IMG/VR virus record: IMGVR_UViG_2563366799_000010
Span: 1-45,378 of that record
Reading direction: 5' to 3' (one strand)
Length of the DNA stretch: 45,378 nucleotides
Source of the DNA: a virus
Lineage: Duplodnaviria; Heunggongvirae; Uroviricota; Caudoviricetes
The position numbers and the translations under genes were made by a program. The notes beneath the pieces were generated by a model. That model saw only the letters and a program-made list of their open reading frames with translations, did no database searches and had not been told where the DNA came from. Position 1 is the first letter of the stretch. Every line of letters starts with the position of its first letter. Shown one piece after another: positions 12,934 to 35,178 of this stretch.

Positions 12934-12936
12934 CTG

Positions 12937-14534: not shown

Positions 14535-14537
14535 AAT

Positions 14538-15986: not shown

Positions 15987-16393
15987 AGCAGCTGCCTGCC
16001 ACCAGCACCGAACATCGACCACCACCAGTAGAACTCGCGACCGTAGGCGGTGCTGTTCCAGAAACCGGCATCCGGATTGATTACCCCGGACACGTCATAG
16101 CTCACTGAAACCTTATCTACGGACTTAGAGGACACGACACCTGCTGCGCCGTTGCTGTTCACACCGCCAGCGGCAGCGGCGGCCAGCGTGCGGCCGCGCA
16201 GCTCCGTATAGTGAGCCGTGAATAGTTCAGCAAGGTAGACGAACTGATCGCCCTGTACGTCCTGATTCAGGAGTGAATCGGCCTGCCCCAGATAGAAATT
16301 CACTGAGGGGTCAGGGTAGCGGATTTTATCGGCGAACTCGGGAAAGTCGGTGCGGAACTGCTCGTTAGTCGGAAGCCTGCTGTTTTTTGGCAT
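15983..16393 (-). CDS. Head-tail connector protein (DUF4054-like)
   Basis: 136-aa ORF directly downstream of the capsid block. Confidence 0.35.
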   Translation of the reverse strand: MPKNSRLPTNEQFRTDFPEFADKIRYPDPSVNFYLGQADSLLNQDVQGDQFVYLAELFTAHYTELRGRTLAAAAAGGVNSNGAAGVVSSKSVDKVSVSYDVSGVINPDAGFWNSTAYGREFYWWWSMFGAGGRQLL

Positions 16394-16775
16394 TTTTCGC
16401 GTCCCCGCCGGTGTTATCGGTTTTGTCCGTGCTGTCGGCAGGTTTACCGCCTGCTGGTGCCTGAGCAGCTGCCAGCTGCGCTTTCAGGTCTGTGTTTTCA
16501 TTCCCCAGCGAGGTGATGGTTTTTTCATGCTCAGCCAGCTGCGCTTTCAGGGTGTTATTTTCTTCTGCCAGGAGAACAAGGCTCGCGGAAAGGTCTTCAT
16601 TGCTCTGCTCGTTCGCCAGGTCGGCTTCGTCAATCGGGCGCGCATAGGCTTTAAAGGCCCAGTGGTCCTTAACTTCTTTCGGGAAAGAGGAACTGTCGTG
16701 GATGCCCGGAGACAGCTCAAATTTAGAACCGTCGGAAAAGCTGAGAGTCGCGCCACCGGAAACAACGTATTTCAT
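16365..16775 (-). CDS. Phage structural protein with coiled-coil C-terminus (putative)
   Basis: 136-aa ORF downstream of the major capsid gene. Confidence 0.35.
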   Translation of the reverse strand: MKYVVSGGATLSFSDGSKFELSPGIHDSSSFPKEVKDHWAFKAYARPIDEADLANEQSNEDLSASLVLLAEENNTLKAQLAEHEKTITSLGNENTDLKAQLAAAQAPAGGKPADSTDKTDNTGGDAKNAKKQQASD

Positions 16776-16820
16776 GTTTTTGCTCCATAAAAAAAGGCGG
16801 GTTTCCCCGCCTGTTTCAGG

Positions 16821-17768
16821 TTAAGACGCCGGAACGTCCAGGTAAGAGATCGTATTGGAATACGGGGTTTCCACCTGGCCCAGCTTGCCGTAGTAAGTGG
16901 TCAACTGCTGCAGGCCGCGATATTCCAGCGGAGTGTTCAGCAGAGGAACCATCGGGAAGCGAACATATTTTTCGTCCTGGGTGTAAGCAACGATACGATG
17001 CGCGCCACCAGCGCCACGCTTGGAGGCCCACTTCATGGAGACGATCTCCAGTGGTGTGCCATTTTCCTGGAACGCGATGGTGTTAATCTTCACGTATTCC
17101 AGCACAGAGATATTCCCTGCAGAGGAAACCTTTTTGCTCGCCAGCAGGCCGAACAGCTCCGGCGCCAGACCGATTTTCGCCGGGCAGACCGCATAACCAG
17201 AACGAACCCAGCCATCAGACAGTACCAGGTTGATATCCTGAACAATCACATCCGGATCGGTGGTTGCGGTCCACGCTGCGGCGGCAGCAACAGGAGTAAC
17301 ATCCGGCAGGTTCAGTAGGCCAGCAACGCCGAGCTCGTTATCACCGATATAAACCTGTTCGTCGGTGTCCATGTTCCACTTCAGCTTCATGCCTTCGTAT
17401 TTCTGGACATCAACAGGACGGCCCAGTTTCTGGGCAGAAGCCAGTTCCGGCACCGTCCAGCTGATTTCCTGCCCCCACAAGGTGAGGTTGTTACGGGTAG
17501 GCTGAATATCGAGCTCGATACCAGGAATGGCAGTGGCTTTTTTACCGATCCAGTTTTTACCGTTAGGGTTTGGACCACCAACGCCGACGAAATCGGTATT
17601 AGTGAAGGATGACACTTCATCAGCGATAGAAATGTCACTGCGCAGCGGCATGTCACGTGACCATTTGTAGGACACTAAAGGCATGTTCAGCGTCTGATCC
17701 ATGCGCTCCAGTTCGCCGACGAGAAACGCGCCGGTGGAGTCGATGGTCGCTCTGTCAATTGTAAACAT
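16821..17768 (-). CDS. Major capsid protein
   Basis: 315-aa ORF following scaffold and decoration-like genes; strong RBS; typical size and position. Confidence 0.65.
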   Translation of the reverse strand: MFTIDRATIDSTGAFLVGELERMDQTLNMPLVSYKWSRDMPLRSDISIADEVSSFTNTDFVGVGGPNPNGKNWIGKKATAIPGIELDIQPTRNNLTLWGQEISWTVPELASAQKLGRPVDVQKYEGMKLKWNMDTDEQVYIGDNELGVAGLLNLPDVTPVAAAAAWTATTDPDVIVQDINLVLSDGWVRSGYAVCPAKIGLAPELFGLLASKKVSSAGNISVLEYVKINTIAFQENGTPLEIVSMKWASKRGAGGAHRIVAYTQDEKYVRFPMVPLLNTPLEYRGLQQLTTYYGKLGQVETPYSNTISYLDVPAS

Positions 17769-17779
17769 TAATTATTCCC

Positions 17780-18283
17780 TCAGATGTTATAAGCGATTTC
17801 AATACGGCCGTCGGCTTCACCCGGCCCCATGACCTCTGCATTTGGCAGCTGAGGTGTATTTGATGCGGTAGAGTCCGGAGACAGCACAAAGGAGCCAACC
17901 GGGCTTTGAGTGGTGCCACCAGCCACGCGAACGTAAACCGGATCGCCTTTTTTCGCGGTCGCCGCGTTGCCTGCTGTAGCAGTTACGCAGATGTAACCGC
18001 GTTTAAGGTTGTCACCAACCTGATTAGCCGTCACACCGATGTAAGCAAGGTCCAGAGCAGAGGTGATCGGGAACGGACGAACCAGAATCCCTTTCACTTT
18101 GCTGATGGTGTCGCCAGATTCCAGCGGAACGAATTTATCGTTCACGTATTTACCTACCAGCCCGTAGGACGCGAACTGCTTCGTGTGGTCCAGGCTAACC
18201 GGCTCGATGGTGAGATCACGAGGACGGGTAACGCCCCCGGCAATGCCCAGGGGCATGCGCGTTAAATATGCAGTACCTGCCAT
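17780..18283 (-). CDS. Capsid-associated / head decoration-like protein
   Basis: 167-aa ORF between scaffold and major capsid genes. Confidence 0.4.
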   Translation of the reverse strand: MAGTAYLTRMPLGIAGGVTRPRDLTIEPVSLDHTKQFASYGLVGKYVNDKFVPLESGDTISKVKGILVRPFPITSALDLAYIGVTANQVGDNLKRGYICVTATAGNAATAKKGDPVYVRVAGGTTQSPVGSFVLSPDSTASNTPQLPNAEVMGPGEADGRIEIAYNI

Positions 18284-18294
18284 GATGATTTACC

Positions 18295-19566
18295 TTATTT
18301 GTTTTTTGCCCAGAATTCGGCGTTGACCTTGTTCAGTTCTGCCGGGGAAAGGTGTTTAGTGCTGATTCCGCTGTCCGTAGTGCGGGTAATGTTATTCAGC
18401 GGGGTCAGCTGATTTTTCGCCTTATGCAGCGCCACAGCGGCAGTAAACACCGCGTCGACCGTAGCCTTAGGCGCTTTGTAGAAATCATCCACCCCGAATG
18501 ATTTCAGGCTGTCACCGGTGCGCATTGCATGATTCAGAACCTGACGCTTAAGGCTCTTATCGCCAGCAGGCTGGAAGCCAGGGCAGATAATTTCCGCATC
18601 GGCGATCAGGTTGCGCTTAAAGGCTGCGTCACCCGTCACTTTGCGGTTTTCTTCTTCGTCTTCGTCGGTGGTCATGTTGCCAGGGTCAGGATCGCCGTCG
18701 GTGGTTTTACCCTCCAGCTTTTCCAGGCGAACCAGCAGCGCTTTCGCCCAGGCCGGGATTTCTTCATCGCCGGTGCCGGTTTTGTCTTTGTTCGGATCGC
18801 CTTCGTCCGTAGTGGTGCGATTGCCTTCAGGTAAGGCTGTGGCCTGTGAAGGAATGTTGATGGTGATAGAGGAACCGGGGATTGAAGGCATGCCATCAGA
18901 CGGCATATCCGGCGCTTCGTCGATGAGTTTTGCCAGTGCATCCTCATCTTTCGTCTTAATGGCCTGAGCCAGTTTTTTAAGCCATGACATTACAGGCTTC
19001 TCCTTTGTTGTTGATGGGATGGAATCCCCGATTGCACAGCGGCCACCAGCACGCCCCCGGTCGATTCCGACAGCGAGGTGGTTACCTGTGATTTGGTATT
19101 GCTTGCCCTTACCGGGTGCCAGCTGCTTGTACTGCGCGTCATAGCCACAGCTGACATCGGTCAGGCCAGAATTCACCGCGTCGATTGCTTCCTGCCGTTT
19201 AATCAGCACGTCAGCAATGAGCAGATCCGATTTATCGCCGGTGCCGCGCCGGACGTTCTGAATGTGTCCGTGTGCCAGCTCTGCGAAGTTAGAAGGGTTC
19301 ACGAAAACGATGTTGCCCAGACTGTCCTCTGGATGCCCCAGCGTGACGGCTACGCCCTCAAAGCTCGCCATCGTCTCCGGGGAAAACACCTCGTCTTCTG
19401 TTCGCCAGACTGTCACCGTGCCGGTGCCGTCCGGTTCAAGGTCGATTTCCTCAGGTAAATAGACCTGCGTCCCTGTGCGTGCGATCGGCACGTCTTTACA
19501 AAGCAGAGAGCCGTCCGCCTGCAGATAGCGCGTTTCGCCCAGGCGTGTAGTGAAGAAATATTTCAT
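18295..19566 (-). CDS. Prohead scaffold / core protein with acidic, low-complexity centre
   Basis: 423-aa ORF upstream of capsid genes with a D/E/T/G-rich central region. Confidence 0.45.
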   Translation of the reverse strand: MKYFFTTRLGETRYLQADGSLLCKDVPIARTGTQVYLPEEIDLEPDGTGTVTVWRTEDEVFSPETMASFEGVAVTLGHPEDSLGNIVFVNPSNFAELAHGHIQNVRRGTGDKSDLLIADVLIKRQEAIDAVNSGLTDVSCGYDAQYKQLAPGKGKQYQITGNHLAVGIDRGRAGGRCAIGDSIPSTTKEKPVMSWLKKLAQAIKTKDEDALAKLIDEAPDMPSDGMPSIPGSSITINIPSQATALPEGNRTTTDEGDPNKDKTGTGDEEIPAWAKALLVRLEKLEGKTTDGDPDPGNMTTDEDEEENRKVTGDAAFKRNLIADAEIICPGFQPAGDKSLKRQVLNHAMRTGDSLKSFGVDDFYKAPKATVDAVFTAAVALHKAKNQLTPLNNITRTTDSGISTKHLSPAELNKVNAEFWAKNK

Positions 19567-19589
19567 GGGTTACCTGCTCGATTACGGGC

Positions 19590-19616
19590 AACAAAAAGGC
19601 CGCCCGGAGGCGACCT
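19590..19616 (-). terminator. Terminator-like hairpin just upstream of the scaffold gene
   Basis: Minus-strand hairpin AGGUCGCC-UCCG-GGCGGCCU followed by UUUUUGUUG, 26 nt before the scaffold ATG. Confidence 0.4.
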
Positions 19617-19827
19617 TGTGAGATGGGAAAAATGTTCGAAATAACGGGCTATTTAACATAAGGGTTCTTACCCGCACCGACGAAAATGGACTCGATTAAA
19701 ATGTCCCCTTAAAGCCGTAAAAGTAGCGATTAACTGGGCTGAAAATCGGTCTTTTCGAATACAACATTTTCATAACATTTCGCGGGTATTGCAGTTCGCA
19801 TGAAATGAATGCTCAAAGCCGTATTTT

Positions 19828-20580
19828 TCATTTTCTCGGTGCAGGAATCTGTACTTCAGGCCAGCATTTGCAGTTCGGCAAACATCCGGCGTGTCCGGTC
19901 ATACCGTCCAGCGTCGGCGGGTTATCCCAGCGCACAAATTTATCTTTCATCTTGCGGTGAGAATCGCGCGTTCCGGCCCCCTCGATACGCCACCAGTAGC
20001 CCTCTGAGCCAACCGAAAGGGCTCTGGCCTGCGTCAGCGCGCCGGTAGCTCGTCCAATCTCTGTGCGGGCAATCAGTTGCGCCCTGCTGGCGGTCACGTC
20101 ACCGGAGGCCATGATCATCTCGTAGAGTTCGTCCGGACGTTCACCAGTGATAACCGCCTGCATTGCGCGCTTTTGTATGTCCATCACGCGATCGGCTGCT
20201 TCCAGCGGCAGGGACTTCATCAGCTGAATCTGGCGGTACACGATATCCTGCGCCACCTGCCCGACGGGGGTATTACCCACCACATCGCGCAGGCCAGCGC
20301 CGATTTCCTCTGATACCGATTTCCACTGATTCCATTCCTCCTGCTCGACCTGGGCAAACATCCTTCGCCCGACCTGCTCTGCCCAGTCGCTGATTACCTC
20401 GGAATAGTCCACCAGCGTTTTCGAAATGCTGTCAGCGCTGGCCTGTGAACCATCGTAGGTACCATCGACGATCTGCCCTATCTGGTTTGCTATCGCCAAC
20501 AGGCTTTTTCGATACTGGATCTCCGAACGACGGCGGAGGGATGGTTTCAGGTTCATCCTCCTGCCACTGGGCCTTCGCAT
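19828..20580 (-). CDS. Head morphogenesis protein (SPP1 gp7 / Mu F-like)
   Basis: 250-aa ORF downstream of portal with C-terminal motifs typical of this family; true start uncertain (overlaps portal 3' end). Confidence 0.6.
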   Translation of the reverse strand: MRRPSGRRMNLKPSLRRRSEIQYRKSLLAIANQIGQIVDGTYDGSQASADSISKTLVDYSEVISDWAEQVGRRMFAQVEQEEWNQWKSVSEEIGAGLRDVVGNTPVGQVAQDIVYRQIQLMKSLPLEAADRVMDIQKRAMQAVITGERPDELYEMIMASGDVTASRAQLIARTEIGRATGALTQARALSVGSEGYWWRIEGAGTRDSHRKMKDKFVRWDNPPTLDGMTGHAGCLPNCKCWPEVQIPAPRK

Positions 20581-21901
20581 CTTCTATGTCCTCATCAGTG
20601 ATAGAACCACCGATCCCAATCACATCAGAAATGTTCCTGAGGTCGTTAAGCGCTGCTGCAGGCGTCATTCCGAGCTCACGAACGGCGGTACCGAGTGCGG
20701 TAACCACATTGTTCGCCATCGCTGCACGGTCCACGTCTGACATCTCCCAGAGCTTGTTAAACTCGAATGTAAAATCGTCAGGCAGTGGTTCACCGAACAG
20801 AGAGCGCCAGGAGATATCGAGCAGCCAGCGGATATGTCGGCGTAAGCGTCTCTCCTGCAGCGAGTTAACCCGGCTGTAGTAGTTTTCCAGATCGCCGTCG
20901 CCGGTGTTGAAACCTGCAGGGGACTGCCCGAACAGACGGACGAGAGGAATTCCCGTCGCGCCGGAAACCTGCTCAGCAAAGCGCAGAAGGACATCAGCGA
21001 TACCCGCAAACGTATAGCTGTGGGTTTCGAACTTATCCTTACCATCCATGATGGTCATGCCTTCGATGGTCTGGAACTGACGTATCATGTCCAGGTGCTT
21101 CATCAGCGCCTTTTCAAGGTCGCCTCCGGTAGCAAGAATCTTGCGCAGGTCTTCAATGCTGTAGGTCCGCAGATGCGCTTTGTGGATCAGCTGTGTGGTG
21201 CCGACGGTCGCAGTATCAAACGCCTCGATACGCTCGAAAATACGCTCCACGACAGACATCCCCCAGCCGTTTTCCGTCTGAGCCTGCTGGAAAGGAAGCG
21301 TATCGCCCTCCATGCGGATAACGCGGCTATGGTGGATCTTCCAGGGGGGAATCCCCTGCTGGTTCGTGATTACCTTGTAATATTTCGGTTTCCCAAAATC
21401 GGGACCGTAATCGGTAACGAGATCGTAATAACTCGGGTTAACCATCCAGCGGTCAAGGCTCATCACGCCCTTAAATTGCCCCTCTTTGATGCGATCCAGT
21501 TTAAGCGGGGAGGACATATCCTGCCCTTCAAGCAGGACCACCAGCACCGCGCCACCGTACAATCGTGACCATTTGAGGTTATCGTTAAGCCCATCCCATA
21601 TAGCGAGCTCATCCCAGAAGGTTTCGAGCTCGCCCTTTTGTCCGGGCTTCAGCTTTGAGCTGATGTTAATCCCCTTGCGGGTCATATCATCGGCCATCGC
21701 ATCCACACCGACACCAACGAGGAACGATGAACGATACGCAAACTCCAGCATCACCCTGTTACGGCTGATGTACCCGGGCATGTACATTCCGCCCGTCTGT
21801 ATGTTTCTGGTGTCGCTGCCAAGTTTGGCCGTGAAATTGTTGTACCCGTCAGCTGTCGCAACGGGCTTTTGTGCGCCGTTCTGGCGTTTCTTACGGGACA
21901 T
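20432..21901 (-). CDS. Portal protein
   Basis: About 490 aa, directly downstream of the large terminase; start at the ATG 2 nt after the terminase stop. Confidence 0.7.
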   Translation of the reverse strand: MSRKKRQNGAQKPVATADGYNNFTAKLGSDTRNIQTGGMYMPGYISRNRVMLEFAYRSSFLVGVGVDAMADDMTRKGINISSKLKPGQKGELETFWDELAIWDGLNDNLKWSRLYGGAVLVVLLEGQDMSSPLKLDRIKEGQFKGVMSLDRWMVNPSYYDLVTDYGPDFGKPKYYKVITNQQGIPPWKIHHSRVIRMEGDTLPFQQAQTENGWGMSVVERIFERIEAFDTATVGTTQLIHKAHLRTYSIEDLRKILATGGDLEKALMKHLDMIRQFQTIEGMTIMDGKDKFETHSYTFAGIADVLLRFAEQVSGATGIPLVRLFGQSPAGFNTGDGDLENYYSRVNSLQERRLRRHIRWLLDISWRSLFGEPLPDDFTFEFNKLWEMSDVDRAAMANNVVTALGTAVRELGMTPAAALNDLRNISDVIGIGGSITDEDIEDAKAQWQEDEPETIPPPSFGDPVSKKPVGDSKPDRADRRWYLRWFTGQR

Positions 21902-21902
21902 G

Positions 21903-23528
21903 TCACGCTCCGGCCAGTTTGGCCCAATTATCAAGAGAGGAATCCATCGGCGCGTAGTTAATCATCACGGCGTCAGCGAGGTTCGGCGACTTGGTGCCGT
22001 CAGGCTGTTTATCAACAACGATTTTCCCCACACCGTTAATGGAATAGGTCGGTTGCGACAGCTCGATGATGAGTTTGTCTTTGCTCGCCATGGCGCTGCT
22101 GATTGAGATAATTTCGTCCGGGTTGTAGGCCATTCCCTCAACCACGGCGCGATAGGTGTTCTGGAAAAGCTTGCGTAATTGCCACCAGCTCTGGGCCTTG
22201 GCGTTAGCAAAGAAGTCCTTGTTCAGGCGGGCGGCCTGTCCGTTGTCGCCGCGCACCGCTTCATCGTCCGGATCAAATACCGCGCCGCTACCACGAAACG
22301 GTGTGGCGAGTATTGACGGTCGGCGCGCTGCGTTACGCAGTTCGTTGATGGCGCGCGCATCGCCGCGAACGCCAGCACCCAGGCCGTCCTCGTCGAAGCG
22401 AAACTCTTCGAGGTTGTCCTGTTCGCAAAAGCCGAAGACCTTCTCAACAGACTGGTAAATGTCGCTGCCAACGCCGGACCATTCACGCACGTTCTCCAGA
22501 AGGAAGCCGTGACGGGTCGAAAAGGCGTTTTTGTCCCGGCCTTCGTCGGCGACGTCCATCGCGCCCAGTCGCTTGCCCGTTGGCTGAATACCAAGTTTGA
22601 TATGCGCGTCGACGGCAGCCTGTACCCAATCGGACGGGATCAGGACGCCTTCCGCAGATGCGCTGTAGTTCAGGTCAAGTTCCTGCGCCACCACCACCGG
22701 ATTGTCGATTTTCTCGCACTCCCTGCGATACCACTCTTCATCCTTGCGCGGGTCATCTCGCCAGTGGAACGTGAATACTGGTATTTTTCCGCCGTGGCGC
22801 TTCTGCGCGAACGGGTTCGCCATGCCATTAACCGAGCTCAGGTCAATACGGCAACGGGTGGTTTGCGACAGCGCCGCATCAATCAACAGAGGACGCTGGA
22901 GGAATGCAGCTTCATCCACCAGGTAGAGCGTGGTACGGTCACCACGTCCGATATTGTCGCCAGCCTCGCCTTTGATAACCGCGCCAGTATCTGGAAACTC
23001 AACGCGCATATAAGGCGCATGCTTCTTCTCGTCCCACGAGCCACGAAACTCGATGGGCAGTGTTTCCACGAACTTTCGCGCCTTCCAGAACAGCGCCTTC
23101 GGGTCACCGGTGCTGTCGACGTATTCCTCTTTACGGGAGCCGAAACCGATAACCATTTCTTTGTTGAAGAGGCAGAGCGAACAGGCCAGCCCGATCGCCG
23201 TCCAGCTGAGCCCCATTTCGCGGCTCTTTTCGGTGATGCCGTTCTCCAGTCGTTCGCGCCGCTCCATGATCCAGTGAATCCACTCTTCCTGTTTCGGGAA
23301 CAGCAGAAAAGGGATGGTGACCGGCAGGCCATAATCGATGTTACGCGGGTCAGTAGTCATACCCCAGTCGATGATGAACTGTGCCGGGTTGGTGCGGTAA
23401 AACTGCTTTAGCGCTGGCAGCATTTCAGGGTTCTGGCGAATGCGCTGTAAGCGCTCCATCCGCCATTCAAAAACCATCTGGTAATCAGGGTTTCTGAAAT
23501 CGAATTCAAACGGGAGAGGCATGATCAC
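21903..23528 (-). CDS. Terminase large subunit
   Basis: 541-aa ORF with an N-terminal ATPase region and C-terminal nuclease-like region; overlaps the small subunit stop by 4 nt. Confidence 0.8.
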
Positions 23529-24208: not shown

Positions 24209-24940
24209 TCAGTCCTTAATGAACTCTTCCGTGTGAATGCCGATTTCACCAGTAAGCAGCTGAGCACTGGTTGCGTCGATGCTCACTGATGTATGAGGGT
24301 TGGCGTTTTCGTTAAGCCATTTGATTACCGGATTCACTACGTCTTCGAAGGAGGAGCTGCGAGCCTTATTAACGTCGGAAACGTGGCAGTCACCAAGGCA
24401 TGGGCCTTTATCGGAAAAACAGTTAACGCAGGAATGATCGTGGATTTTCTCAGGGACGCTAAAAGTCTCATGAAAACCATGGCCTTCTTGGTACCAGCGC
24501 CAACAAGCGCGATATTCATAATCGACCGCCTCGTCATGCAACTGCCAAAGCAGATCAGGATTGCTAATGAGCTCATGGCAGATTTTAGGCTGATAGCCTT
24601 CCCCAATGGCCTGCTTGATATATTCAATCATGGCCTCGCGTGAGGGTGGCTTAGTCTGCTCTTCCTGAGTCCCGTCAGTTTCATCATCATATTCAAACAC
24701 CGGGAAGCAACGCACACTGTCAACGAGGTGGTCACGAAAGATACGGGTTTCCAGCGAATCGGGCGCTGTAAACAACTCAATATTTACTCCGGAACCGAGG
24801 TTAATTTTCGGTTTATCTTTCGAGTACCCCTCAAACAACAGGCTTTCGACCAGATTGTGGGCGTTGATAATGCCGGGAAGCTTGCCGGAAGGCTGAGAAA
24901 GCTGCAGAAGCTGAACTTTCCAATACTTGATAACTTTCAT
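24209..24940 (-). CDS. Hypothetical Cys/His-rich protein between lysis cassette and terminase
   Basis: ATG at 24940 with an AAGGAA RBS; C-terminal cluster HDHSCVNCFSDKGPCLGDCH suggests metal binding; function unknown. Confidence 0.5.
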   Translation of the reverse strand: MKVIKYWKVQLLQLSQPSGKLPGIINAHNLVESLLFEGYSKDKPKINLGSGVNIELFTAPDSLETRIFRDHLVDSVRCFPVFEYDDETDGTQEEQTKPPSREAMIEYIKQAIGEGYQPKICHELISNPDLLWQLHDEAVDYEYRACWRWYQEGHGFHETFSVPEKIHDHSCVNCFSDKGPCLGDCHVSDVNKARSSSFEDVVNPVIKWLNENANPHTSVSIDATSAQLLTGEIGIHTEEFIKD

Positions 24941-25077
24941 GCTGTTTTCCTTTAGATGTGAGCCTGTCGTACAGGAACGCCGCCCGAGAGAGGTCGCCAC
25001 CTTTAACGGCGTTCCTCAGGCTCACGACTGAAAGACTCTCGATGGTTTGCGTGTACGATACGCATAAAAAAGCCCCG

Positions 25078-25401
25078 CTATTGCGAGGCTCTTGATGATT
25101 CGATTTTCCTGATTGCTGCCTTATCCAGATTGCACTGCCCCAGCGCCGTGTAGAGCTGAGCGTTTAACTCCAGACTTGCCTGCCACGTGAACGGAACCGT
25201 CATTCCGGGGATCGGCGTGTCAGCTGTCAGGTCAGCGCTTATCGGCACCACCGGGGCCGGAACGTAAACTGTTTTGGTATTCCCGCAGGCTGTCAGCAGC
25301 GGCAGCAGGAACAAGCTGGTTAGCACACGGATCGCCTTCAAGCGCCTGCCTGATGTAGACAATGCGTGTCTCGCCTTTTTTGGCCAGTTCGTTCTTTGCA
25401 T
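25078..25401 (-). CDS. Rz1: o-spanin (Rz1-like outer membrane lipoprotein), overlapping the 3' end of Rz in another frame
   Basis: Lipobox LLTAC and a Pro-rich mature region; start ambiguous (ATG at 25401, or TTG at 25341 / GTG at 25326). Confidence 0.5.
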
Positions 25402-25609
25402 TCTGGGTAGCCTGTGAGATGTCACGGATGAGGTTCATCGTGGTGATCACGTTTCTGGTGATCGCCTCCGATGTGTCTGCCCTGACCGTCGCCTTGTCAC
25501 GCTGTTCTTTGTAGGCGATGGCGTTATCACGGTAATGATTAACAGCCCATGACAGACAGACGATGATGCAGATAACCAGAGCGGAGATAATCGCGGTGAC
25601 TCTGCTCAT
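25232..25609 (-). CDS. Rz: i-spanin (Rz-like), N-terminal membrane anchor
   Basis: First about 31 residues match lambda Rz as recalled, then the sequence diverges; coupled to R. Confidence 0.65.
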
Positions 25610-27361: not shown

Positions 27362-27985
27362 CTAACGTGTGACCGCATTCAAAATATTGTCTGCGATTGA
27401 CTCTTCCTTGTGGCATTGCACCACCAGAGCGTCATACAGCGGCTTAACAGTGCGTGACCAGGTGGGTTGGGTAAGGTTTGGGATTAGCATCGTCACAGCG
27501 CGATATGCTGCGCTTGCTGGCATCCTTGAATAGCCGACGCCTTTGCATCTTCCGCACTCTTTCTCGACAACTCTCCCCCACTGCTCTGTTTTGGCTATAT
27601 CAACCGCACGGCCTGTACCGTGGCAATCTCTGCATCTTGCGCCCGGCGTCGCGGCACTACGGCAATAATCCGCATAAGCGAATGTTGCGAGCACTTGCAG
27701 TACCTTTGCCTTAGTATTTCCTTCAAGTTTTGCAACGCCACGGTATTTCCCCGATACCTTGTGTGCAAATTGCATCAGATAGTTGATAGCCTTTTGTTTG
27801 TCGTTCTGGCTGAGTTCATGCTTACCGCAGAATGCAGCCATTCCGAATCCGGCTTGTGATTGCGCCATCCCCATAGCAGCCATCACATCAGTACCGGAAA
27901 GAGAGTCAGAAGCCGTAGCCCGTGGTGAGTCGCTCATCATCGGGCTTTTTGGCGAATGAAATTTAGCTACGCTTTCGAGTCTCAT
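27362..27985 (-). CDS. Q: Late gene antiterminator Q
   Basis: 207-aa protein essentially matching lambda Q as recalled, including the Cys-rich zinc-binding region. Confidence 0.9.
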
Positions 27986-28647
27986 GCGCCTTCTCCCTGT
28001 ACCTGAATCAATGTGAGATTTCCGCAGAACACTGCGCCGGTATCGATATACATTTGGTTGGCAAATTTAAGTGGTTTCACTGCTGGCGTATGACCAAAGA
28101 TAAACGTGTCCGCGCCTTTAATTTCTTTCACGATCCCGTCTTGTGAGTTGCTGATTCGTTCGCGGTTCCAGATTACCTGCTGATGATCAACTGGCTTTCC
28201 AAATTCGTATTCGTCACAAGGATAATCGGCGTGGCAGATGACATATTTTTTACCTTTGCTCACCAGTTCGATGATTAACGGAAGTTCTTCTGCTTTATGG
28301 GCAAGAGCTTTAGCCAGAATTTCTTTGTCGTAATCGAGATTAAAGAACCAGCCACCGCCATTAAGCAGCCAGTGATTGACGCTTCCGCGCTCTGATAAGC
28401 CATCAATCATCATTTGCTCATGGTTTCCACGTACAGCTCTGAACCAGGGGAATGTGATTAATTCCAGGCATTCAACGTTCTCTGCACCACGATCAACCAA
28501 ATCGCCAACCGAGATAAGCAGGTCTTTTTTGGTGTCGAATCCTATCGTCTCCAGTTTTTTCATCAGGTTCGTGTAGCATCCGTGCAGATCGCCAACTACC
28601 CAAATATTTCGGTATTTGCTGCCATCAATTCTTTCGTAATAGCGCAT
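27982..28647 (-). CDS. ninI: Ser/Thr protein phosphatase (lambda orf221 / NinI)
   Basis: Metallophosphatase motifs GDLHG, GDLVDRG, GNHE; start at the internal ATG giving about 221 aa. Confidence 0.8.
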
Positions 28648-28831
28648 CTCTTTCACTCCATCCGCGATGAACCATAAGAACGTCGTTGACGATGGCGTGC
28701 ATTTTCCCGTCTTTATCATCAACGTATTTTCTTACCGTGCCGCGACTACATTTCAGTCTGCGTGCCACTTCTGTCTGGTTTCCGTATGCTTCAACGAGCA
28801 TGTCTGGAATGGTTTTTACTGAGAACGTCAT
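28625..28831 (-). CDS. ninH: NinH
   Basis: 68 aa from the internal ATG; matches lambda NinH as recalled. Confidence 0.7.
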
Positions 28832-29223
28832 GCGGCCTCCAGTAGCTCTGTAATCATTGGCAAACTCCCGCATGTTTCAGTCACAACCAACACAAGCATT
28901 CCACCTTTAATCGCCTGATAGCGCTTGATGCGCATATCGTCTATCTGACCGTCATCCAGCCAGAAGCCCGCACTGGTGAGTGCGTCAAAAACGGCTTTGG
29001 GCAGATTGTCCAAATCTCGTTTGCGGTTATCGGGAGGTGCTGCGTGGATGGTTATTCTGATGCGAGGTGTGATTTTGATGTCTAGCTGTTGTTGCTGGAT
29101 TATTTCGATTACTTCTTTTCGGTATCTCTTCCCCCAGTCGCTGATGTAGTGGATCCCTCTTGAGTGTCGCCAATATCGGTTGTTTGAAGGAGGCCACGGC
29201 AATTTTATTCGGTAGGTTTTCAT
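28828..29223 (-). CDS. rusA: RusA-family Holliday junction resolvase
   Basis: N-terminal LPWPPSNNRYWRH and ..RDLDNL..FWLDD.. motifs typical of RusA. Confidence 0.7.
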   Translation of the reverse strand: MKTYRIKLPWPPSNNRYWRHSRGIHYISDWGKRYRKEVIEIIQQQQLDIKITPRIRITIHAAPPDNRKRDLDNLPKAVFDALTSAGFWLDDGQIDDMRIKRYQAIKGGMLVLVVTETCGSLPMITELLEAA

Positions 29224-29510
29224 GACTTAATCTTCCCCTCCTTCAGCAGTATCGCCTGCGTCCTGATCACGCCTTCGAGGTGGTAAAGTCTGGCGTCTTT
29301 GTTGTCGATATTATGGGTGCGTCGGTCGATTTCATCGTGACACGCGCTACAAGCCCATGCGCCGATCAGGTCGTCAGGTTTCATTCCCGTTCCGCAAATT
29401 CCAGCCATCCGGTAATGTGCCAGAACTGTAGTTTCAGGATTACCATTGCATACGCCGTAAATACGTACCTGGCATTCTCTGTTGCGCGCTTCTTTGCGTA
29501 GGTTAGCCAT
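29220..29510 (-). CDS. DUF1364-family (YbcO-like) Cys-rich protein
   Basis: 96-aa ORF with conserved Cys/His pattern, in the usual position next to rusA. Confidence 0.5.
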   Translation of the reverse strand: MANLRKEARNRECQVRIYGVCNGNPETTVLAHYRMAGICGTGMKPDDLIGAWACSACHDEIDRRTHNIDNKDARLYHLEGVIRTQAILLKEGKIKS

Positions 29511-30232
29511 TAAGCAGCCTCCCCTGTTACTTTCAGCATTCCGTTATCGAGCAGCTTTCTGGTCAGCCACTGTTGACCACGGCCGGTGATTTTTGTGGTG
29601 AACGATATCTGTATTCCGTGATTTGTGTTGACCGCTGTTTCTTTCACTGTGAAATAGCCGCGCTCCATATATTCCTGCATTGGCACATTGCGCCGGGAAC
29701 CTGAAGCAATAAGGATTTTGTGATCGCGCATCCACGCAAACAGTTTGTTTGGACCAATTCCAACAACCTTTGCAAAGTTTCCAATCAAAATTCCGCTGGC
29801 CTCGCCAACGCGATCGGCAAACTCAACTTTAGGTGCGGCAATTGCGAGCTGGTTTTCCAGTTGCATTTTCTGCTCAGCAAGATCAGCAGCAAGGCGCAAC
29901 GCTTCTGGTAGCGTTTTGGGGATATTAACCGCAGTTTCTTCAAGCTCTCGCCAGCGGTCAACAAGGCGAGCGGTGAACTCTGGCGACAACTGGGCAACAA
30001 CAACAATACTATCTCGCTTACCTTGTTCGCCTTCGAAGACGTAATGCTCGTACTGAACATTGAACCCTAAGTTATTGATTCTTTCGGAAACCTCAATTTG
30101 AGGAAGCCGGATAACACCATTTTTAGCCAGCGTTTCGATGGTACGTTTCACATTGTCATGACGCTTACCCACCAAATAAGCGATTTCAATGCTTGTCATT
30201 TTGATGGCATTGCCATTTATTAACTCATTCAT
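29510..30232 (-). CDS. Phage antirepressor (Rha-like N-terminus, KilA-C-like C-terminus)
   Basis: 240-aa ORF; domain organisation inferred from sequence character. Confidence 0.55.
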   Translation of the reverse strand: MNELINGNAIKMTSIEIAYLVGKRHDNVKRTIETLAKNGVIRLPQIEVSERINNLGFNVQYEHYVFEGEQGKRDSIVVVAQLSPEFTARLVDRWRELEETAVNIPKTLPEALRLAADLAEQKMQLENQLAIAAPKVEFADRVGEASGILIGNFAKVVGIGPNKLFAWMRDHKILIASGSRRNVPMQEYMERGYFTVKETAVNTNHGIQISFTTKITGRGQQWLTRKLLDNGMLKVTGEAA

Positions 30233-30395
30233 CGTCTTCTTCCTCGTACATTGAGCTATTCGGATCGCTCATCAGTTCTGCGCAGCAATCGGAGCACACG
30301 TGAACTTCCAGCACATGCAGCTTCTGACCGCAGTTAGCGCACGTTAAAGCCCGCTCGACGCTTTCTTGTTCGTAACTTCGATTTGGGTCAATCAC
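30225..30395 (-). CDS. ninD: NinD (GTG start)
   Basis: 56-aa ORF below the ORF-track size cutoff, found by hand translation; matches lambda NinD as recalled; coordinates +/-1 nt. Confidence 0.55.
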
Positions 30396-30574
30396 CTTGT
30401 TTTCCTCGCACGTTCTCTAAGCCACCGGATATCCCACAGGTGAGCCGTGTAGTTGAAGGTTTTTACGTCAGATTCTTTTGGGATTGGCTTGCGTTTATTT
30501 CTGGAGCGTTTCGTTGGAAGGTATTTGCAGTTTTCACAGATGATGTCGGTGATACTTCGTCGCTGTCGTCTCAT
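30392..30574 (-). CDS. ninE: NinE
   Basis: 60 aa from the internal ATG; matches lambda NinE as recalled. Confidence 0.7.
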
Positions 30575-31101
30575 GCCGCCCTCCTGACGCCCTGCCCGAT
30601 CGCCATCAATGCCGCTTTGGATACGGTAGTAAACATCCGTCGAGGACTGATGAACGGTCGCCAAATCAGCAGCATGGAGCCTTTGCTGTTTCCCTTCTTC
30701 TCCAGCCCTGTCGATGGTTCGATAAAATTAATCCGTCCATCAGTGATAATGCGAACTTCGTCGACACTCTCCAGAGCCTTGCTGAACCATCCGACAGACA
30801 TATCCTCTGGCACAAGCATCACTACCGTCTGTCGCTGTTGTATGCACTGCTCAGCTGCTTTTTCCACCCACGGCCTGATATTGCTGTACGGTGGGTTATT
30901 CCAGATTGCACCGTGACTTACCCACTCAGAATTGAGCGCGTCGTCGGCCTCAGTTAGCCAGTGAGCGCACAGAGCATTTTTGTCGCTCGCTGCCGAATCC
31001 AGCCAGAATCCAAACTCAATATCCAGTGCATCAAAAAGCCAGAGCGGCGTTTGCCAGCAGTCTCTAACTTCTTTTGGTGTTTCTGATTTATGCTTAATCA
31101 T
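30571..31101 (-). CDS. DNA N6-adenine methyltransferase (orphan, phage Dam-like)
   Basis: NPPY catalytic motif present; no adjacent restriction partner recognised. Confidence 0.65.
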
Positions 31102-31625
31102 TCACCCCTCGCATATTGTCCGTGATATTTGTTGATAGCCTCACTGGCAACCAAACCAGCAAGCTCAAGATCTTCATAGAACCCAAAATGCAACCGGCCA
31201 AAATCTGTGCGCACTTGAACGGCCCATTTATTTTTTTGCTTGTTCCATAAAACATTTTTTATTCCAGAACGGCTATTGCACTTAGTTTTCTGATTTCGGC
31301 TGTTTGCTATCCGGCTTGCCTCCCTAAGATTTTTTGGGGAATTGTCCAGCCTGTTTCCGTTAATATGGTCAATATTTTTCAATGGCATTCTTTTGTTGTG
31401 CAGCGCAAAAACAACTACGTGAACAAACATCTGAATGCCTGCAAAACACACCTGTCTATACCCAGATCCATTTATCGATGTTTTAATTTCATCTCCGGCC
31501 CGGTGGCTGTGGTTGGGGTGTTTTAGCGAGTCCTTTTTGTATCTGACTGTATCTCCGTCTAAATACAGATAATCCTCAATAAGCCGATACCTATCTGACG
31601 CTGGCGTATTTGATTTGATAGTCAT
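31098..31625 (-). CDS. HNH homing-type endonuclease
   Basis: HINGNRLDNSPKNL HNH motif; start at the internal ATG overlapping the ninB stop. Confidence 0.6.
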   Translation of the reverse strand: MTIKSNTPASDRYRLIEDYLYLDGDTVRYKKDSLKHPNHSHRAGDEIKTSINGSGYRQVCFAGIQMFVHVVVFALHNKRMPLKNIDHINGNRLDNSPKNLREASRIANSRNQKTKCNSRSGIKNVLWNKQKNKWAVQVRTDFGRLHFGFYEDLELAGLVASEAINKYHGQYARGE

Positions 31626-32062
31626 GCAGCCCGATCTCCCCATCGCGCTTTCCATTCGAGAGCCAGTCGCGCTTCGTCTGACCACTTAACGCCACGCTCT
31701 GTACCGAATGCCTGTATAAGCTCTAATAGCTCCGCAAATTCGCTTACACGCATCCTGCTGGTTGACTGGCCTATTACCACAAAGCCATTCCCGGCAAGGT
31801 TAGGAACAACATCCTGCTGCTTTAATGCTGCGGTAAACACACACTTCCAGCTTTCTGCATCCAGCCAGCGCCCATGCCATTCAACCTGACGAGAGACGTC
31901 ACCAAGGCAAGCCCAAAGCTTTCGATTCTGGTCTAAGCTGCGGTTGCGTTCCTGAATGGTTACTACGATTGGTTTGGTTGGGTCTGGAAGAATTTGCTGT
32001 ACCTCGTGAATAGCGTTTTGCTGATGTGCTGGAGATCGAATTTCAAAGGTCAGTTTTTTCAT
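31622..32062 (-). CDS. ninB: NinB recombination protein
   Basis: 146-aa protein essentially matching lambda NinB as recalled. Confidence 0.8.
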   Translation of the reverse strand: MKKLTFEIRSPAHQQNAIHEVQQILPDPTKPIVVTIQERNRSLDQNRKLWACLGDVSRQVEWHGRWLDAESWKCVFTAALKQQDVVPNLAGNGFVVIGQSTSRMRVSEFAELLELIQAFGTERGVKWSDEARLALEWKARWGDRAA

Positions 32063-32255
32063 GACTTCCCTCTCTAACAGATTTCAGGTTATTCCACTCC
32101 GTTACCGCACTGCGATAATTCGCTGCCGCCACAGCGGCGTGGTTAGCGCAGTAGATTTGGCACCCGCTCTCCATGTCGAATATTGTCGGTGATTTTCCGC
32201 ATTTACATTTTTTGGCACGCGGTGCGTCTGAACACATTCCGTTAACGGTGTCCAT
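32043..32255 (-). CDS. Small Cys-rich hypothetical protein
   Basis: 70-aa ORF with CKCG..C..YC pattern, overlapping the ninB start. Confidence 0.3.
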   Translation of the reverse strand: MDTVNGMCSDAPRAKKCKCGKSPTIFDMESGCQIYCANHAAVAAANYRSAVTEWNNLKSVREGSHEKTDL

Positions 32256-32280
32256 CAGGATCCCCCTCGTTCTTAATCCA

Positions 32281-32310
32281 ATAAAAAAGGGCTACTGTGT
32301 AAATAGCCCC
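32281..32310 (-). terminator. Rho-independent terminator downstream of ren (tR2-equivalent)
   Basis: Minus-strand hairpin GGGCUA-loop-UAGCCC followed by UUUUUUAUU. Confidence 0.55.
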
Positions 32311-32336
32311 TGTTATTAGCTCAGTGATGTAGATGG

Positions 32337-32627
32337 TCATTGCCTTACCTCCATAAGCGCCCTATTAATAAACGCCGTCATTGGATTTGCACATCCCCAC
32401 CCCGTACCATCTGGATTTCTTTTAATTGGCTCCTTCTTCACTTTGCGTTTTGCATAAATAACCGTCTTCCACTTACGCTCAACAACACTCAAATGTCCTT
32501 GTTTCACCATATGCCTTGCTGCTTTAGCGATTCTGTTATTTGGTATTCCGGTGATCAGTGCTAATTCATGTGGGGAGAATTGTTCATGAGTTTTCAGATA
32601 TTCCAGGATGATTTCTTTTCCAGTCAC
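32337..32627 (-). CDS. Ren-like protein
   Basis: 96 aa, starts MTGKE like lambda Ren as recalled, same size and position; overlaps the DnaC-like gene stop. Confidence 0.45.
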   Translation of the reverse strand: MTGKEIILEYLKTHEQFSPHELALITGIPNNRIAKAARHMVKQGHLSVVERKWKTVIYAKRKVKKEPIKRNPDGTGWGCANPMTAFINRALMEVRQ

Positions 32628-33517
32628 GATCTGCTCCTGTAACTATCCCATGTAAACGCAAGAGTGCACCCTCCGCCATCATTCATCCTGTCAATAACAC
32701 GCTCACCAATGAATGCCGAAAGTTCATCTTTGCTCTGATTACTAATCAGGATTGTTGGCTTCATGTATTCATATCTGGTGTTGATAATTTCGAACATGAT
32801 TAGCTTTTCAGCATCACTGCCGAACTGCACGCCAACCTCATCGATTATTAACAAGTCAGGATGCGTAAATTGCCTAATGACTTCTTCTTCAGTTCTGGTT
32901 GCGGCCTTAGACCATGTTGATTTGTACTCTCTGGCAATTTTCAACGCAGTGGTAAATATCACAGAGCTTTGATGCTCGATAATGGCGTGCCTAGCGATAG
33001 CCAGTGCAAGGTGGTTCTTTCCAGTTCCAGGCTTACCACACATGACCAGTCCGCCACCTTTCTGAAGGCGTTCAGGCCACTTACTGGCATATGCCTGGCA
33101 TACCTTAAGAACTCGCTTTGCATCATCGTTAACAGGCTCATAATTCTGAAGAGTGCAATTTTTGAACCTCTCTGGAATATTGAGAGAATTCAACAAATAT
33201 TCAATTTTTGATTGTCTTGCTCTTTGTTCTGCCTGCTCACGTTCAATCTCTTTCTTACGAATTTTCTCCTCAAGGCACTGTGGGCACTCAGATTTACTTG
33301 AAGTAATTCTTTTTCCTGAGATGGTCAGATATTTCTCATAGGAAGTATATTTACCGTGTTTCTCGCACTCTTCCACTGTGCTGGTAACTGACATTCCATC
33401 TGATGCTGATCCAATTTTGCTAAACTCAAGTTTCTGTTTCAGATCAGAAATGTCATTGATTTTTGAGTCTACAAGTTGCCTTTGCAGTGCCAGATTGTAA
33501 CCATTTGTCGTATTCAT
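32624..33517 (-). CDS. DnaC-like helicase loader (AAA+ ATPase)
   Basis: Walker A GKPGTGKNHLA and Walker B LLIIDEVG; ORF track start is at 33535. Confidence 0.7.
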   Translation of the reverse strand: MNTTNGYNLALQRQLVDSKINDISDLKQKLEFSKIGSASDGMSVTSTVEECEKHGKYTSYEKYLTISGKRITSSKSECPQCLEEKIRKKEIEREQAEQRARQSKIEYLLNSLNIPERFKNCTLQNYEPVNDDAKRVLKVCQAYASKWPERLQKGGGLVMCGKPGTGKNHLALAIARHAIIEHQSSVIFTTALKIAREYKSTWSKAATRTEEEVIRQFTHPDLLIIDEVGVQFGSDAEKLIMFEIINTRYEYMKPTILISNQSKDELSAFIGERVIDRMNDGGGCTLAFTWDSYRSRS

Positions 33518-33519
33518 AT

Positions 33520-34365
33520 TCACTCCTGCGCCCATGAAGGCATTTCAGTTTGCCCGTAATCTTTGGCGGCAAAGTTTTCCTGCATAGCTCGCTGCTGCGG
33601 CCTCGGTTGAGATTTCCCCTTTGGAGTCTTGGGTTCAAAAATCCCCTGCCAACCACTGGCGATGCTCTGGTTTATAATTTCTTCAGGTGTATATCCCTTC
33701 TCCAGACTTCTGCTTAGAACGTTGATAGCCTGAGTGACGCTTTGCTTAGACTTGATCGACTTACCTATCTCCTTGCGATAGGTAACCCACGACAACCATG
33801 TTTCTGCCGATAACCAATCAGGCAACTCTGTTTCTAGCGGGTCGAACTTCTGAGAAATTTTTTTGGGGGATATAGGGGGTTTATTAATATTTTCTTTTGT
33901 CTTTAAAGAATGTCTTTTGTGTGTCTCTAACTTCGAGACATTGAGTGTCTCTAATTTGGAGACATTTTTTGTCTCTAACTTCGAGACAAAGTTGCTAACT
34001 TGGAGACACTTGCTGAATTGCCACGCAGATACCTCCCTGTTTACACCGATTTGATTTCCATCCATAAACAGGCAATTCATTGAAATCAGTTCTTTTTTAG
34101 CCTTGTTAACATTCTGCCTTGATAGTCCTGTTAACTGAGCAATTTGCTCATCGGCTATTCGATCTGTTTTCTTATTGAATCCATATGTTTTCCGGACGTA
34201 GGCCAGCATAACTTTCAACTGGCGAGCGGTTAAATCGGCACTTGCGATAGCTTCCAGCAGCTCGTTAGCGAATCTGGTGTAACCATCATCGATATCAGCC
34301 ACTCTTAGCTCCTGTTCGGCAAAGTTACCTCTGCCGAAGTTGAGTATTTTTGCTGTATTTGTCAT
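33520..34365 (-). CDS. Replication initiator (lambda O-like)
   Basis: 281-aa ORF; internal repeats VSKLET x3 are encoded by origin iterons lying inside the gene. Confidence 0.7.
   Translation of the reverse strand: MTNTAKILNFGRGNFAEQELRVADIDDGYTRFANELLEAIASADLTARQLKVMLAYVRKTYGFNKKTDRIADEQIAQLTGLSRQNVNKAKKELISMNCLFMDGNQIGVNREVSAWQFSKCLQVSNFVSKLETKNVSKLETLNVSKLETHKRHSLKTKENINKPPISPKKISQKFDPLETELPDWLSAETWLSWVTYRKEIGKSIKSKQSVTQAINVLSRSLEKGYTPEEIINQSIASGWQGIFEPKTPKGKSQPRPQQRAMQENFAAKDYGQTEMPSWAQE
33922..34008. repeat. Replication origin: four 19-bp iterons (TGTCTCTAACTTCGAGACA-like) at 24-bp spacing, flanked by an AT-rich tract (33850-33920)
   Basis: Read directly: copies at 33922, 33946, 33970 and a degenerate one near 33990, each an inverted repeat TGTCTC...GAGACA. 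Confidence 0.65.
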
Positions 34366-34397
34366 AATGACTCCTGTGGATTGATCCAGTAATTACC

Positions 34398-34694
34398 TCA
34401 GAATTGCATATCAATTTGCTTAAAATCCTCGGTGGCGGCCGGGGATTTTTTCTTTGTGATTTCATCAAGCGCATACTTAAAAGCCCTGCTAATCGGACTG
34501 ATGTCTGATGCCATTCCGAAAGCACACAAGACCGAAGCAATAAATCTCCAGTCCGTTCTGCTTATCTTCGATTCATGACAGCCAATCATCTTTGCCAGAC
34601 CGCGCTGGGTAAGCGTTGACAGGTTGATGAGTAAATCTGTTTCTGCGCGATCAATTTCTCGCTGTGTTGGCTTGCTGTAACTTGCTTGTGTCAT
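34398..34694 (-). CDS. CII-like transcriptional activator
   Basis: 98 aa; C-terminal KKKSPAATEDFKQIDMQF resembles the lambda CII C-terminus as recalled; position downstream of cro. Confidence 0.55.
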   Translation of the reverse strand: MTQASYSKPTQREIDRAETDLLINLSTLTQRGLAKMIGCHESKISRTDWRFIASVLCAFGMASDISPISRAFKYALDEITKKKSPAATEDFKQIDMQF

Positions 34695-34778
34695 TTGTTA
34701 ATTTTCCAATAGTGAATAGTTAGTTGAAAGGTATGCGTGGAAACACATATGGCCTTAGTTGGTCAGATATCTTGGGGC

Positions 34779-34823
34779 TCGCTTTGTCAGCGACGTAGGA
34801 CGAATGTCCATTGTGAAAAGAGC
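34779..34823 (-). promoter_or_regulatory. nutR-like site (boxA-like CGCTCTTTTCA and boxB hairpin UCGCUGACAAAGCGA)
   Basis: Read on the minus strand between cro and cII; boxB has a GACAA pentaloop like the P22-type boxB upstream of N. Confidence 0.4.
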
Positions 34824-34831
34824 GGTGTTAC

Positions 34832-35065: not shown

Positions 35066-35178
35066 TAGTGCCTCCGTTTATCATACAGAATAACTTTACC
35101 ATTTTGATAAATCAACCGCAATGTAAATTTATCATATTGCGTATTTATCCATTTGCTAAATAGAGGGAAAATTGTGAG
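35066..35178. promoter_or_regulatory. Right operator region with divergent promoters for cI and cro
   Basis: Four TTTATCA-type operator-like motifs including the palindrome TTGATAAATCAA; candidate -10 TAAAGT on the minus strand. Confidence 0.5.

Follow-up and report, generated by a model that had tools for sequence, protein, structure and literature searches.

What kind of spanin pair closes the lysis cassette of this prophage, and where did its two genes come from? The window, the whole stretch of 45,378 nucleotides analysed here, carries at 25078–25609 an inner-membrane spanin (i-spanin) gene that opens like lambda Rz and then departs from it, followed by an overlapping lipoprotein (o-spanin) gene with several candidate start codons. 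We read this region, with a probability of roughly 0.85, as a two-component spanin that forms the last unit of the lysis cassette of a lambdoid prophage and is a recombinant gene pair. The family of the two proteins, the position and origin of the joint, and the start of the lipoprotein are considered in turn below.

All genes of the cassette lie on the minus strand, in the order holin S (26389–26066), endolysin R (26082–25606), i-spanin Rz (25609–25232), and o-spanin Rz1 (25341–25078). The holin is of lambda type (Pfam Phage_holin_3_1, 2.4e-30; phrog_126, 1.4e-40), as is the endolysin, a protein of 158 aa that matches the phrog_90 endolysin family at 1.6e-63. The stop codon of R overlaps the start codon of Rz (ATGA), and the spanin pair directly follows holin and endolysin at the end of the cassette. 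Elsewhere in the window, a tRNA-Arg(CCT) gene at 1009–1083 is followed by an integrase gene, and there are lambda-like early and nin/Q genes together with genes for terminase, portal, major head protein, tail sheath, tape measure, and baseplate. Taken together, these genes describe a lambdoid prophage that has a contractile tail and is broadly of the SfV/SfIV kind.

The i-spanin is a 125-aa protein encoded from ATG 25609 to a stop codon ending at 25232. Its match to phrog_214 (“Rz-like spanin”; 1.1e-36) extends over residues 6–124, and the lambda-type family phrog_13 covers residues 1–77 only. Pfam PF10828 (DUF2570) scored 18.9 bits against a gathering score of 26.6 and is thus below threshold (E = 0.0015). 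No Pfam Rz-family profile matched the i-spanin at E ≤ 0.1, and NCBIfam gave no match at E ≤ 0.01 for Rz, Rz1, R, or the ORF downstream. An identical protein from E. coli is named “DUF2570 domain-containing protein” by NCBI. The transmembrane segment corresponds to residues 4–22, the best 19-aa Kyte-Doolittle window (mean 2.63), and a second hydrophobic segment is absent, the Kyte-Doolittle maximum after residue 30 being 0.29. In an AlphaFold2 model built from the single sequence, with a mean pLDDT of 76 (moderate confidence), helices span residues 3–91 and 102–116, with a break at residues 92–95 (GDPC, including Cys95). The periplasmic domain is accordingly predicted, with moderate confidence, to be mainly alpha-helical and interrupted by that break. 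Outside and before its overlap with the o-spanin gene, Rz has a pN/pS of 0.23–0.26 across relatives, which indicates purifying selection.

The lipoprotein ORF reads in the +1 frame of Rz and is open from GTG 25425 to its stop at 25078, with an LLTAC lipobox whose Cys codon occupies 25287–25285. All candidate starts, from 25425 to 25311, fall within Rz, and the gene ends only after Rz has terminated at 25232. This agrees with the preliminary description, in which the lipoprotein ORF overlapped the 3′-end of Rz in another frame and ran past it. Counted from TTG 25341, the two genes share 110 nt at the end of Rz, and a further 154 nt of the lipoprotein gene follow the Rz stop. The product matches Pfam PF23793 (LysC, Rz1-like lysis system protein LysC) with 52.7 bits against a cut-off of 27 (E = 4e-14), over profile positions 2–67 of 69, and phrog_456 at 1.1e-24. 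With both proteins hitting spanin families strongly (phrog_214, phrog_456, Pfam LysC), the matches are not due to chance. The family to which the i-spanin body and the o-spanin belong is a known one (phrog_214/phrog_456, Pfam LysC), and PGAP annotates it as “DUF2570 + LysC”. The overlapped spanin class is reportedly also credited to Summer et al. 2007. Its architecture, exemplified by P2 LysB/LysC, has been described in detail (Kongari et al., 2018; PMC6139136), and the pair in the window belongs to it rather than to the embedded layout of lambda.

A putative lipoprotein signal peptide of 18 aa (25341–25288), recognized by a pattern match to the lipobox L-T-A-C, precedes a mature part of 69 aa (CGNTKTVY…; 25287–25081). 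The mature o-spanin has Gly and not Asp at position +2 and one internal Cys at mature position 52. A residue other than Asp after the lipobox Cys directs lipoproteins to the outer membrane. The o-spanin is a predicted outer-membrane lipoprotein, 69 aa long when mature, and its mature part has a pN/pS of 0.09–0.10 across relatives, again indicating purifying selection. Its TAG stop codon (25080–25078) lies within a hairpin that, together with a U-run, straddles the end of the gene at 25093–25062 and resembles an intrinsic terminator. The hairpin has an 11-bp stem and a folding energy of −17 kcal/mol (z = −3.67), which was matched by none of 200 shuffled sequences. It was found by direct folding and was not reported by a simple consensus terminator scan. 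Its sequence is kept, together with the body, in Enterobacter phage CobraSix and E. coli ES3.

The preliminary description had noted that Rz matches lambda for about 31 residues, then diverges and is shorter, and had taken this as a sign of a recombination joint inside the gene. BLASTP against lambda Rz (153 aa) aligned residues 1–39 with 37 of 39 identical, the first 31 all being so, and found nothing significant in the i-spanin after residue 39. When the lysis cassette was compared by megablast with 50,697 phage records, 318 matched. For all 30 of these that were listed, the match over S, R, and the start of Rz was 96.5–97.5% identical and ended at query positions 901–914, equivalent to 25500–25487 in the window; PDP110P1 was the only one of the 30 with an extra, separate second piece further downstream. 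In 50-nt segments compared with lambda, HK140, and CUS-3, identity is mostly 94–100% (lowest 86–92%) down to about 25521, past which identity to lambda-type phages falls to 54% or less. The holin gene is 98–100% identical in nucleotide sequence to those of lambda and HK140, and the endolysin gene, in 50-nt segments, 90–100% identical to those of lambda, HK140, and CUS-3.

The position of the switch was narrowed with informative sites that distinguish 11 lambda-type sequences from 22 unique other-family sequences of equal gene length. All 20 consecutive informative sites from 25603 to 25526 are lambda-type, whereas from 25493 onward they follow the other family, with a single exception at 25469. 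Since 25526 is the last lambda-type site and 25493 the first of the other family, the crossover lies within the 32 nt from 25525 to 25494 (codons 29–39), where the two parental families are near-identical. The joint within Rz is thereby borne out by both the drop in identity and the switch of informative sites, and is placed at codons 29–39 rather than exactly at codon 31.

On either side of this interval, the closest sequences come from different lineages. Upstream, E. coli SCPM-O-B-8794 is identical to the window from 25637 to about 25506 and has one mismatch (at 25638) across 25700–25506. Downstream, Enterobacter phage CobraSix matches the region 25500–25060 at 95.2% identity, stop codon and hairpin included, and E. 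coli, Enterobacter, Citrobacter, and Kosakonia prophages and Klebsiella phages match it at 82–94%. The parents of the chimera were deduced from such relatives rather than from exact parental sequences. On this basis, the comparisons support a probable derivation of S, R, and Rz codons 1–28 (25609–25526) from an E. coli lambda-type phage. They likewise support the assignment of Rz from codon 40 (the DUF2570/phrog_214-type periplasmic body, codons 40–125, 25493–25232), the whole o-spanin, and the hairpin to the DUF2570/LysC-type family, which is common in Enterobacter, Klebsiella, and Citrobacter phages.

A lambda-like N-terminus could in principle also reflect common descent, with the i-spanin being a divergent member of a single family that kept the anchor it shares by ancestry with lambda Rz and underwent no recent recombination. 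Full-length relatives from E. coli M37H and Enterobacter prophages do begin with MSRLTAIICAVVICLL…, which is recognisably lambda-like. These relatives nevertheless differ from the lambda type at the 20 diagnostic sites in codons 1–28, at each of which the window is lambda-type, and the lambda-type block, 96–100% identical to those phages, continues upstream through R and S. Other members of the family carry unrelated anchors (ALVKRYWLQLL…, SLLKKLWLPVV…, ISSWKATAALL…) on the same body. We regard common descent without recent exchange as highly improbable. The preliminary description would have had the joint fall on full-length similarity to a known spanin pair with an unambiguous start, which is only half the case; relatives of 125 aa with a lambda-like N-terminus do exist, as in M37H, but the N-terminus in the window clearly comes from the E. 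coli lambda-type lineage and not from the lineage of its body. Its picture of a lambda N-terminus fused to a divergent body holds insofar as the two parts stem from different lineages, but a lambda-like N-terminus is the norm in this family and not a one-off. As M37H-like relatives combine this body with a lambda-like anchor of their own, the two families share an old N-terminal module. What the comparisons support for the window is a more recent replacement of that anchor by the E. coli lambda-type version, together with S and R.

The crossover interval coincides with the motif NHYRDNAI(A/T)YK(E/D/A)QRDK, which is common to lambda-type Rz and other-family i-spanins. It occurs with at least four anchors (MSRLTAIICA… and the three named above), and the same motif behind at least four anchor types in other-family i-spanins shows that the anchor is a module repeatedly exchanged at this point. 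The motif is near-identical at the DNA level and is present in i-spanins that differ in both anchor and body. These observations allow the tentative and rather doubtful suggestion that this 16-residue membrane-proximal motif is a maintained exchange joint, a “boundary sequence” of modular phage evolution. Were this true, it would let endolysin-linked anchor modules and periplasmic-domain/o-spanin modules reshuffle without breakage. The motif may also play a separate role at the surface of the membrane. As a possible documented joint, the “bsq3 boundary sequence” of the CUS-3 annotation was considered and rejected, because it is located upstream of S and not in Rz.

An assembly chimera was likewise considered and rejected, since the identical 125-aa protein is present in NCBI on 97 contigs from several sources; the exact chimera on 97 E. 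coli contigs points to a circulating sequence and not to an artefact. A related concern is that the chimeric pair might be a non-functional remnant of a decaying prophage, and the score of the hybrid i-spanin below the Pfam DUF2570 threshold could be taken in that sense. Both ORFs are intact, however, and the joint falls within a motif that the two parents share. A single parent supplied both the periplasmic domain and the o-spanin, the exact protein recurs on all of those contigs, and in the prophage around the pair the genes for early functions, lysis, packaging, head, and tail look complete. Decay into a remnant is accordingly very unlikely.

For a working pair, the following sequence of events may be proposed. 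The i-spanin would be anchored in the inner membrane through its N-terminal transmembrane helix, with a mostly helical domain reaching into the periplasm. The o-spanin would be made, most probably from TTG 25341, as a precursor that signal peptidase II cleaves between LTA and C. By analogy with lambda Rz/Rz1 (PMC6139136), the two proteins would bind each other through their C-terminal parts and so span the periplasm. Once the endolysin has removed the murein, they would, on the same lambda model, fuse the inner and outer membranes as the last step of lysis; it is by this analogy that we infer outer-membrane disruption by the present pair. The crossover in the shared motif would have swapped the membrane anchor and left the periplasmic domain together with its cognate o-spanin. 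Because these two come from one parent, a working pair is to be expected.

The remaining question is where translation of the o-spanin begins. ATG 25401, TTG 25341, and GTG 25326 are in frame ahead of LLTAC, as the preliminary description had listed them, and its uncertainty about the start is shared by the databases. Public calls for related o-spanins give products of 57, 78, 79, 85, 87–89, and 93–94 aa, from at least six different starts, and some of them cut into the signal peptide or remove it. Wrongly assigned starts are a frequent problem for o-spanin genes (Kongari et al., 2018; PMC6139136). Through cleavage between LTA and C, all candidate starts would lead to one and the same mature lipoprotein of 69 aa.

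We consider TTG 25341, which gives a precursor of 87 aa (25341–25078), to be the probable start. It is kept in 64 of 66 and 72 of 74 unique relatives, a conservation that requires the Leu codon of Rz to be CTT each time, and the distant SfIV and Mulock genes likewise have a TTG at −18 from the Cys. PGAP and other annotators call the same TTG in several relatives. A Shine-Dalgarno-like AGGCAGG (25351–25345) precedes it, made up of the rare Arg codon AGG and CAG-G of Rz; the AGG is kept in 70 and the CAG in 67 of 74 unique relatives. The duplex of this sequence with the 3′-end of 16S rRNA is estimated at −6.5 kcal/mol, compared with −6.2 for Rz and −6.1 for R. Lipoprotein precursors are expected to have a lipobox, a Cys at position 15–35, and a Lys or Arg among the first seven residues (PROSITE PDOC00013). 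From TTG 25341, the Cys is at position 19 and two of the first seven residues are Lys or Arg. Among the three named starts, this is the only one to conform to the rule, although translation from a non-canonical ATC at 25332 would conform as well.

Patterns of diversity among relatives bear on the same point. Synonymous diversity in the Rz frame is 0.28 before ATG 25401, stays undiminished at 0.28 between ATG and TTG, and is 0.05 after 25342. In the o-spanin frame, pN/pS is 1.38 before the ATG and 0.99 between ATG and TTG; it drops to 0.52 for the signal peptide and to about 0.1 for the mature sequence. Diversity is concentrated at the third codon position of Rz up to 25342 and at that of the o-spanin from 25311. 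The switch is blurred in the first 30 nt past TTG 25341 because signal-peptide residues tolerate change. Codon-position diversity thus points to a start at 25341 or just downstream. Two divergent relatives have neither this TTG nor its Shine-Dalgarno sequence, and in these the start must be elsewhere, so that start sites drift in this spanin family.

The further upstream ATG 25401 would give a precursor of 107 aa with a 38-aa signal peptide, and could be used alone or alongside TTG 25341. It is kept in 66 of 66 relatives and also in the SfV/SfIV/Mulock clade, where it has GAGG or GGAGG upstream and was taken as the start in the annotations of Mulock (CPT locus tags) and SfIV. This conservation, however, is forced by the Rz residues Q-N/H-A-K, whose conserved codons AAT GCA or CAT GCA contain the ATG. 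The interval between ATG and TTG also has no in-frame stops in 74 relatives, but it is so heavily constrained by Rz that their absence is uninformative, and the o-spanin-frame pN/pS and undiminished Rz-frame diversity given above for this interval speak against its translation as o-spanin. The Shine-Dalgarno duplex of ATG 25401 is weak at −2.5 kcal/mol, equal to the background mean, and the Cys would be at position 39, beyond the range of 15–35. A start at ATG 25401 is therefore unlikely. The use of both starts, yielding two o-spanin precursors, appears less likely than the maintained exchange joint suggested above.

GTG 25326 is the start at which PGAP annotated the identical E. coli o-spanin sequence (82 aa). 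An AAGG located 8 nt before it would form a duplex of −4.3 kcal/mol, and the GTG is retained at this position in both relatives that lack the TTG. It is nevertheless replaced by GCG (Ala) in 43 of 66 and 52 of 74 unique relatives, and translation from it would leave a signal peptide without Lys or Arg and with the Cys at position 14. We consider this start improbable. The practical value of the locus lies in annotation, with the comparative evidence favouring the TTG start, which would give MKAIR…LLTA ahead of the cleavage site.

The gene pair is a product of routine phage gene shuffling and involves nothing outside known phage biology. The spanin family, the overlapped layout, mosaic joints in lambdoid lysis genes, and the exact protein sequence are all already on record. 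What the pair illustrates is that a spanin anchor can be swapped provided that the periplasmic domain keeps its cognate lipoprotein.

Compared with known spanin systems, the window is like lambda, and the variants in HK140, HK022, HK620, and CUS-3, in S, R, Rz residues 1–39, gene order, and the lipoprotein in the +1 frame. The N-terminus of some E. coli lambda-type Rz proteins is identical to that in the window in 41 of 41 residues. The i-spanin has 125 aa, however, compared with 145–153 aa in lambda-type phages, and lambda Rz1 is wholly inside Rz, whereas the o-spanin here runs past it. In the alignment to lambda Rz and Rz1 proposed in the preliminary description, only the first 39 residues of Rz were alike, and BLASTP of the o-spanin against lambda Rz1 was not significant (E = 0.77). 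The pair is not a lambda-type Rz/Rz1 (phrog_13, embedded), as the i-spanin does not resemble lambda Rz over its full length and the o-spanin is not embedded.

P2 LysB/LysC has the same overlapped +1-frame architecture, and P2 LysC shares 28% identity over 83 aa with the o-spanin, including the region of the conserved internal Cys. The context differs, the P2 lysis cassette comprising Y, K, and lysA. P2 LysB was considered as a relative of the i-spanin body and rejected (E = 0.42). The o-spanins of SfV, SfIV, and Klebsiella phage Mulock, placed by Kongari et al. (2018; PMC6139136) in their “Mu” family, have 67–70% nucleotide identity to that of the window and the same overlapped layout; as here, a TTG stands at −18 relative to the Cys, with an ATG further upstream. 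They are far more divergent, their anchors differ, and their annotators chose the far upstream ATG. Spanins of the phrog_214/phrog_456 type are the norm in phages of the SfV/SfIV kind.

The closest counterparts are a prophage of E. coli M37H and Enterobacter phage vB_EclS_CobraSix. The M37H pair (WP_313751523.1/WP_494348071.1, annotated by PGAP as DUF2570 family protein and Rz1-like lysis system protein LysC) has a 125-aa i-spanin with about 89% nucleotide identity, and its LysC is annotated as starting at the counterpart of TTG 25341, so that the genes overlap by 110 nt. At the N-terminus, the i-spanin has the version native to its family instead of the E. coli lambda type, and it is preceded by a class II holin and a different lysozyme. 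CobraSix gp78/gp77 (NC_071003, both named “Rz-like spanin”) have the same overlapped +1-frame layout. From codon 40 of the i-spanin, nucleotide identity to the window is 95.2%, and this stretch takes in the entire o-spanin with its stop codon and the hairpin behind it. In the CobraSix record, the o-spanin is called from a TTG equivalent to 25317, too short for a signal peptide, and the i-spanin is extended upstream. Its anchor differs from that in the window, being of the family's own MSRLTAIICAFVICLL type, and its holin and endolysin are not lambda S and R.

In the Lambdavirus PDP110P1 (OZ035751.1), an o-spanin gene of LysC type is present as a 3′ fragment at positions 3119–3225 of its locus, corresponding to 25224–25118 in the window. 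The fragment shares 89.7% nucleotide identity with the window over 107 nt, encodes a stretch of 43 residues, and has neither a lipobox nor a start; a complete lambda-type Rz/Rz1 pair sits upstream of it. The fragment resembles a remnant of the alternative spanin type, one that an older replacement at this locus would have left behind.

Several copies of these genes are annotated with incorrect starts in related genomes. In E. coli ES3 (NZ_CM184350.1), the LysC gene at locus positions 3290–3463 is called by PGAP from a GTG located 3′ of the lipobox, resulting in a protein of 57 aa without a signal peptide. Both spanin starts are miscalled in the Enterobacter phage CobraSix (locus positions 2685–2921 and 2288–2767), where the annotated o-spanin start is a TTG within the hydrophobic core and the i-spanin annotation begins 34 codons 5′ of the conserved MSRLTAI start. 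The calls for ES3 LysC and for both CobraSix spanins are annotation errors. A Kosakonia cowanii copy differs from all other family members in the alignment by a 1-base deletion inside the Rz/Rz1 overlap (aligned to window position ~25273), which would shift the frame of both Rz and Rz1 from there onward. Either an error in sequencing or decay of this copy could account for the deletion.

Genome contigs with 99.7–100% identity to phage lambda 45.0–46.8 kb (L030–L058 and others among the DNA search matches) are assigned to organisms that are unrelated, including Kitasatospora, Brevibacillus, Pedobacter, Flavobacterium, Cohnella, and Arcanobacterium. Several are ~3.5 kb long and start at one common lambda position, and the Arcanobacterium contig is a 3566 bp “plasmid unnamed1”. 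These contigs look like control or spike-in lambda DNA remaining in assemblies rather than real genes of the named organisms, the source possibly being linked to a sequencing control amplicon.

An ORF of ~243–263 aa on the minus strand (24209–25000), which probably starts at ATG 24941, separates the lysis cassette from the small terminase subunit. This ORF had no match in Pfam or NCBIfam, and its sole match was phrog_16206 (function unknown; 9e-60). Relatives instead have HNH endonuclease or Rha-type genes at this location.

A tRNA-Arg gene with anticodon CCT (1009–1083, plus strand) is followed directly downstream by a tyrosine-integrase gene (1209–2402, plus strand; phrog_1, 7e-82). Together they resemble one prophage end, suggestive of integration at an argW-type tRNA gene. 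Comparison of the minus-strand region 2496–21934 with 27362–35883 shows a composite prophage. It joins a contractile-tail structural module, including genes for tail sheath (13389–14534), tape measure (10324–12363), and baseplate (4503–5702 and 8368–9432), to the lambda S/R lysis genes and to genes of a lambda-like kind (regulation, replication, nin/Q). The same lambdoid-myovirus combination is present in SfV/SfIV-like phages.
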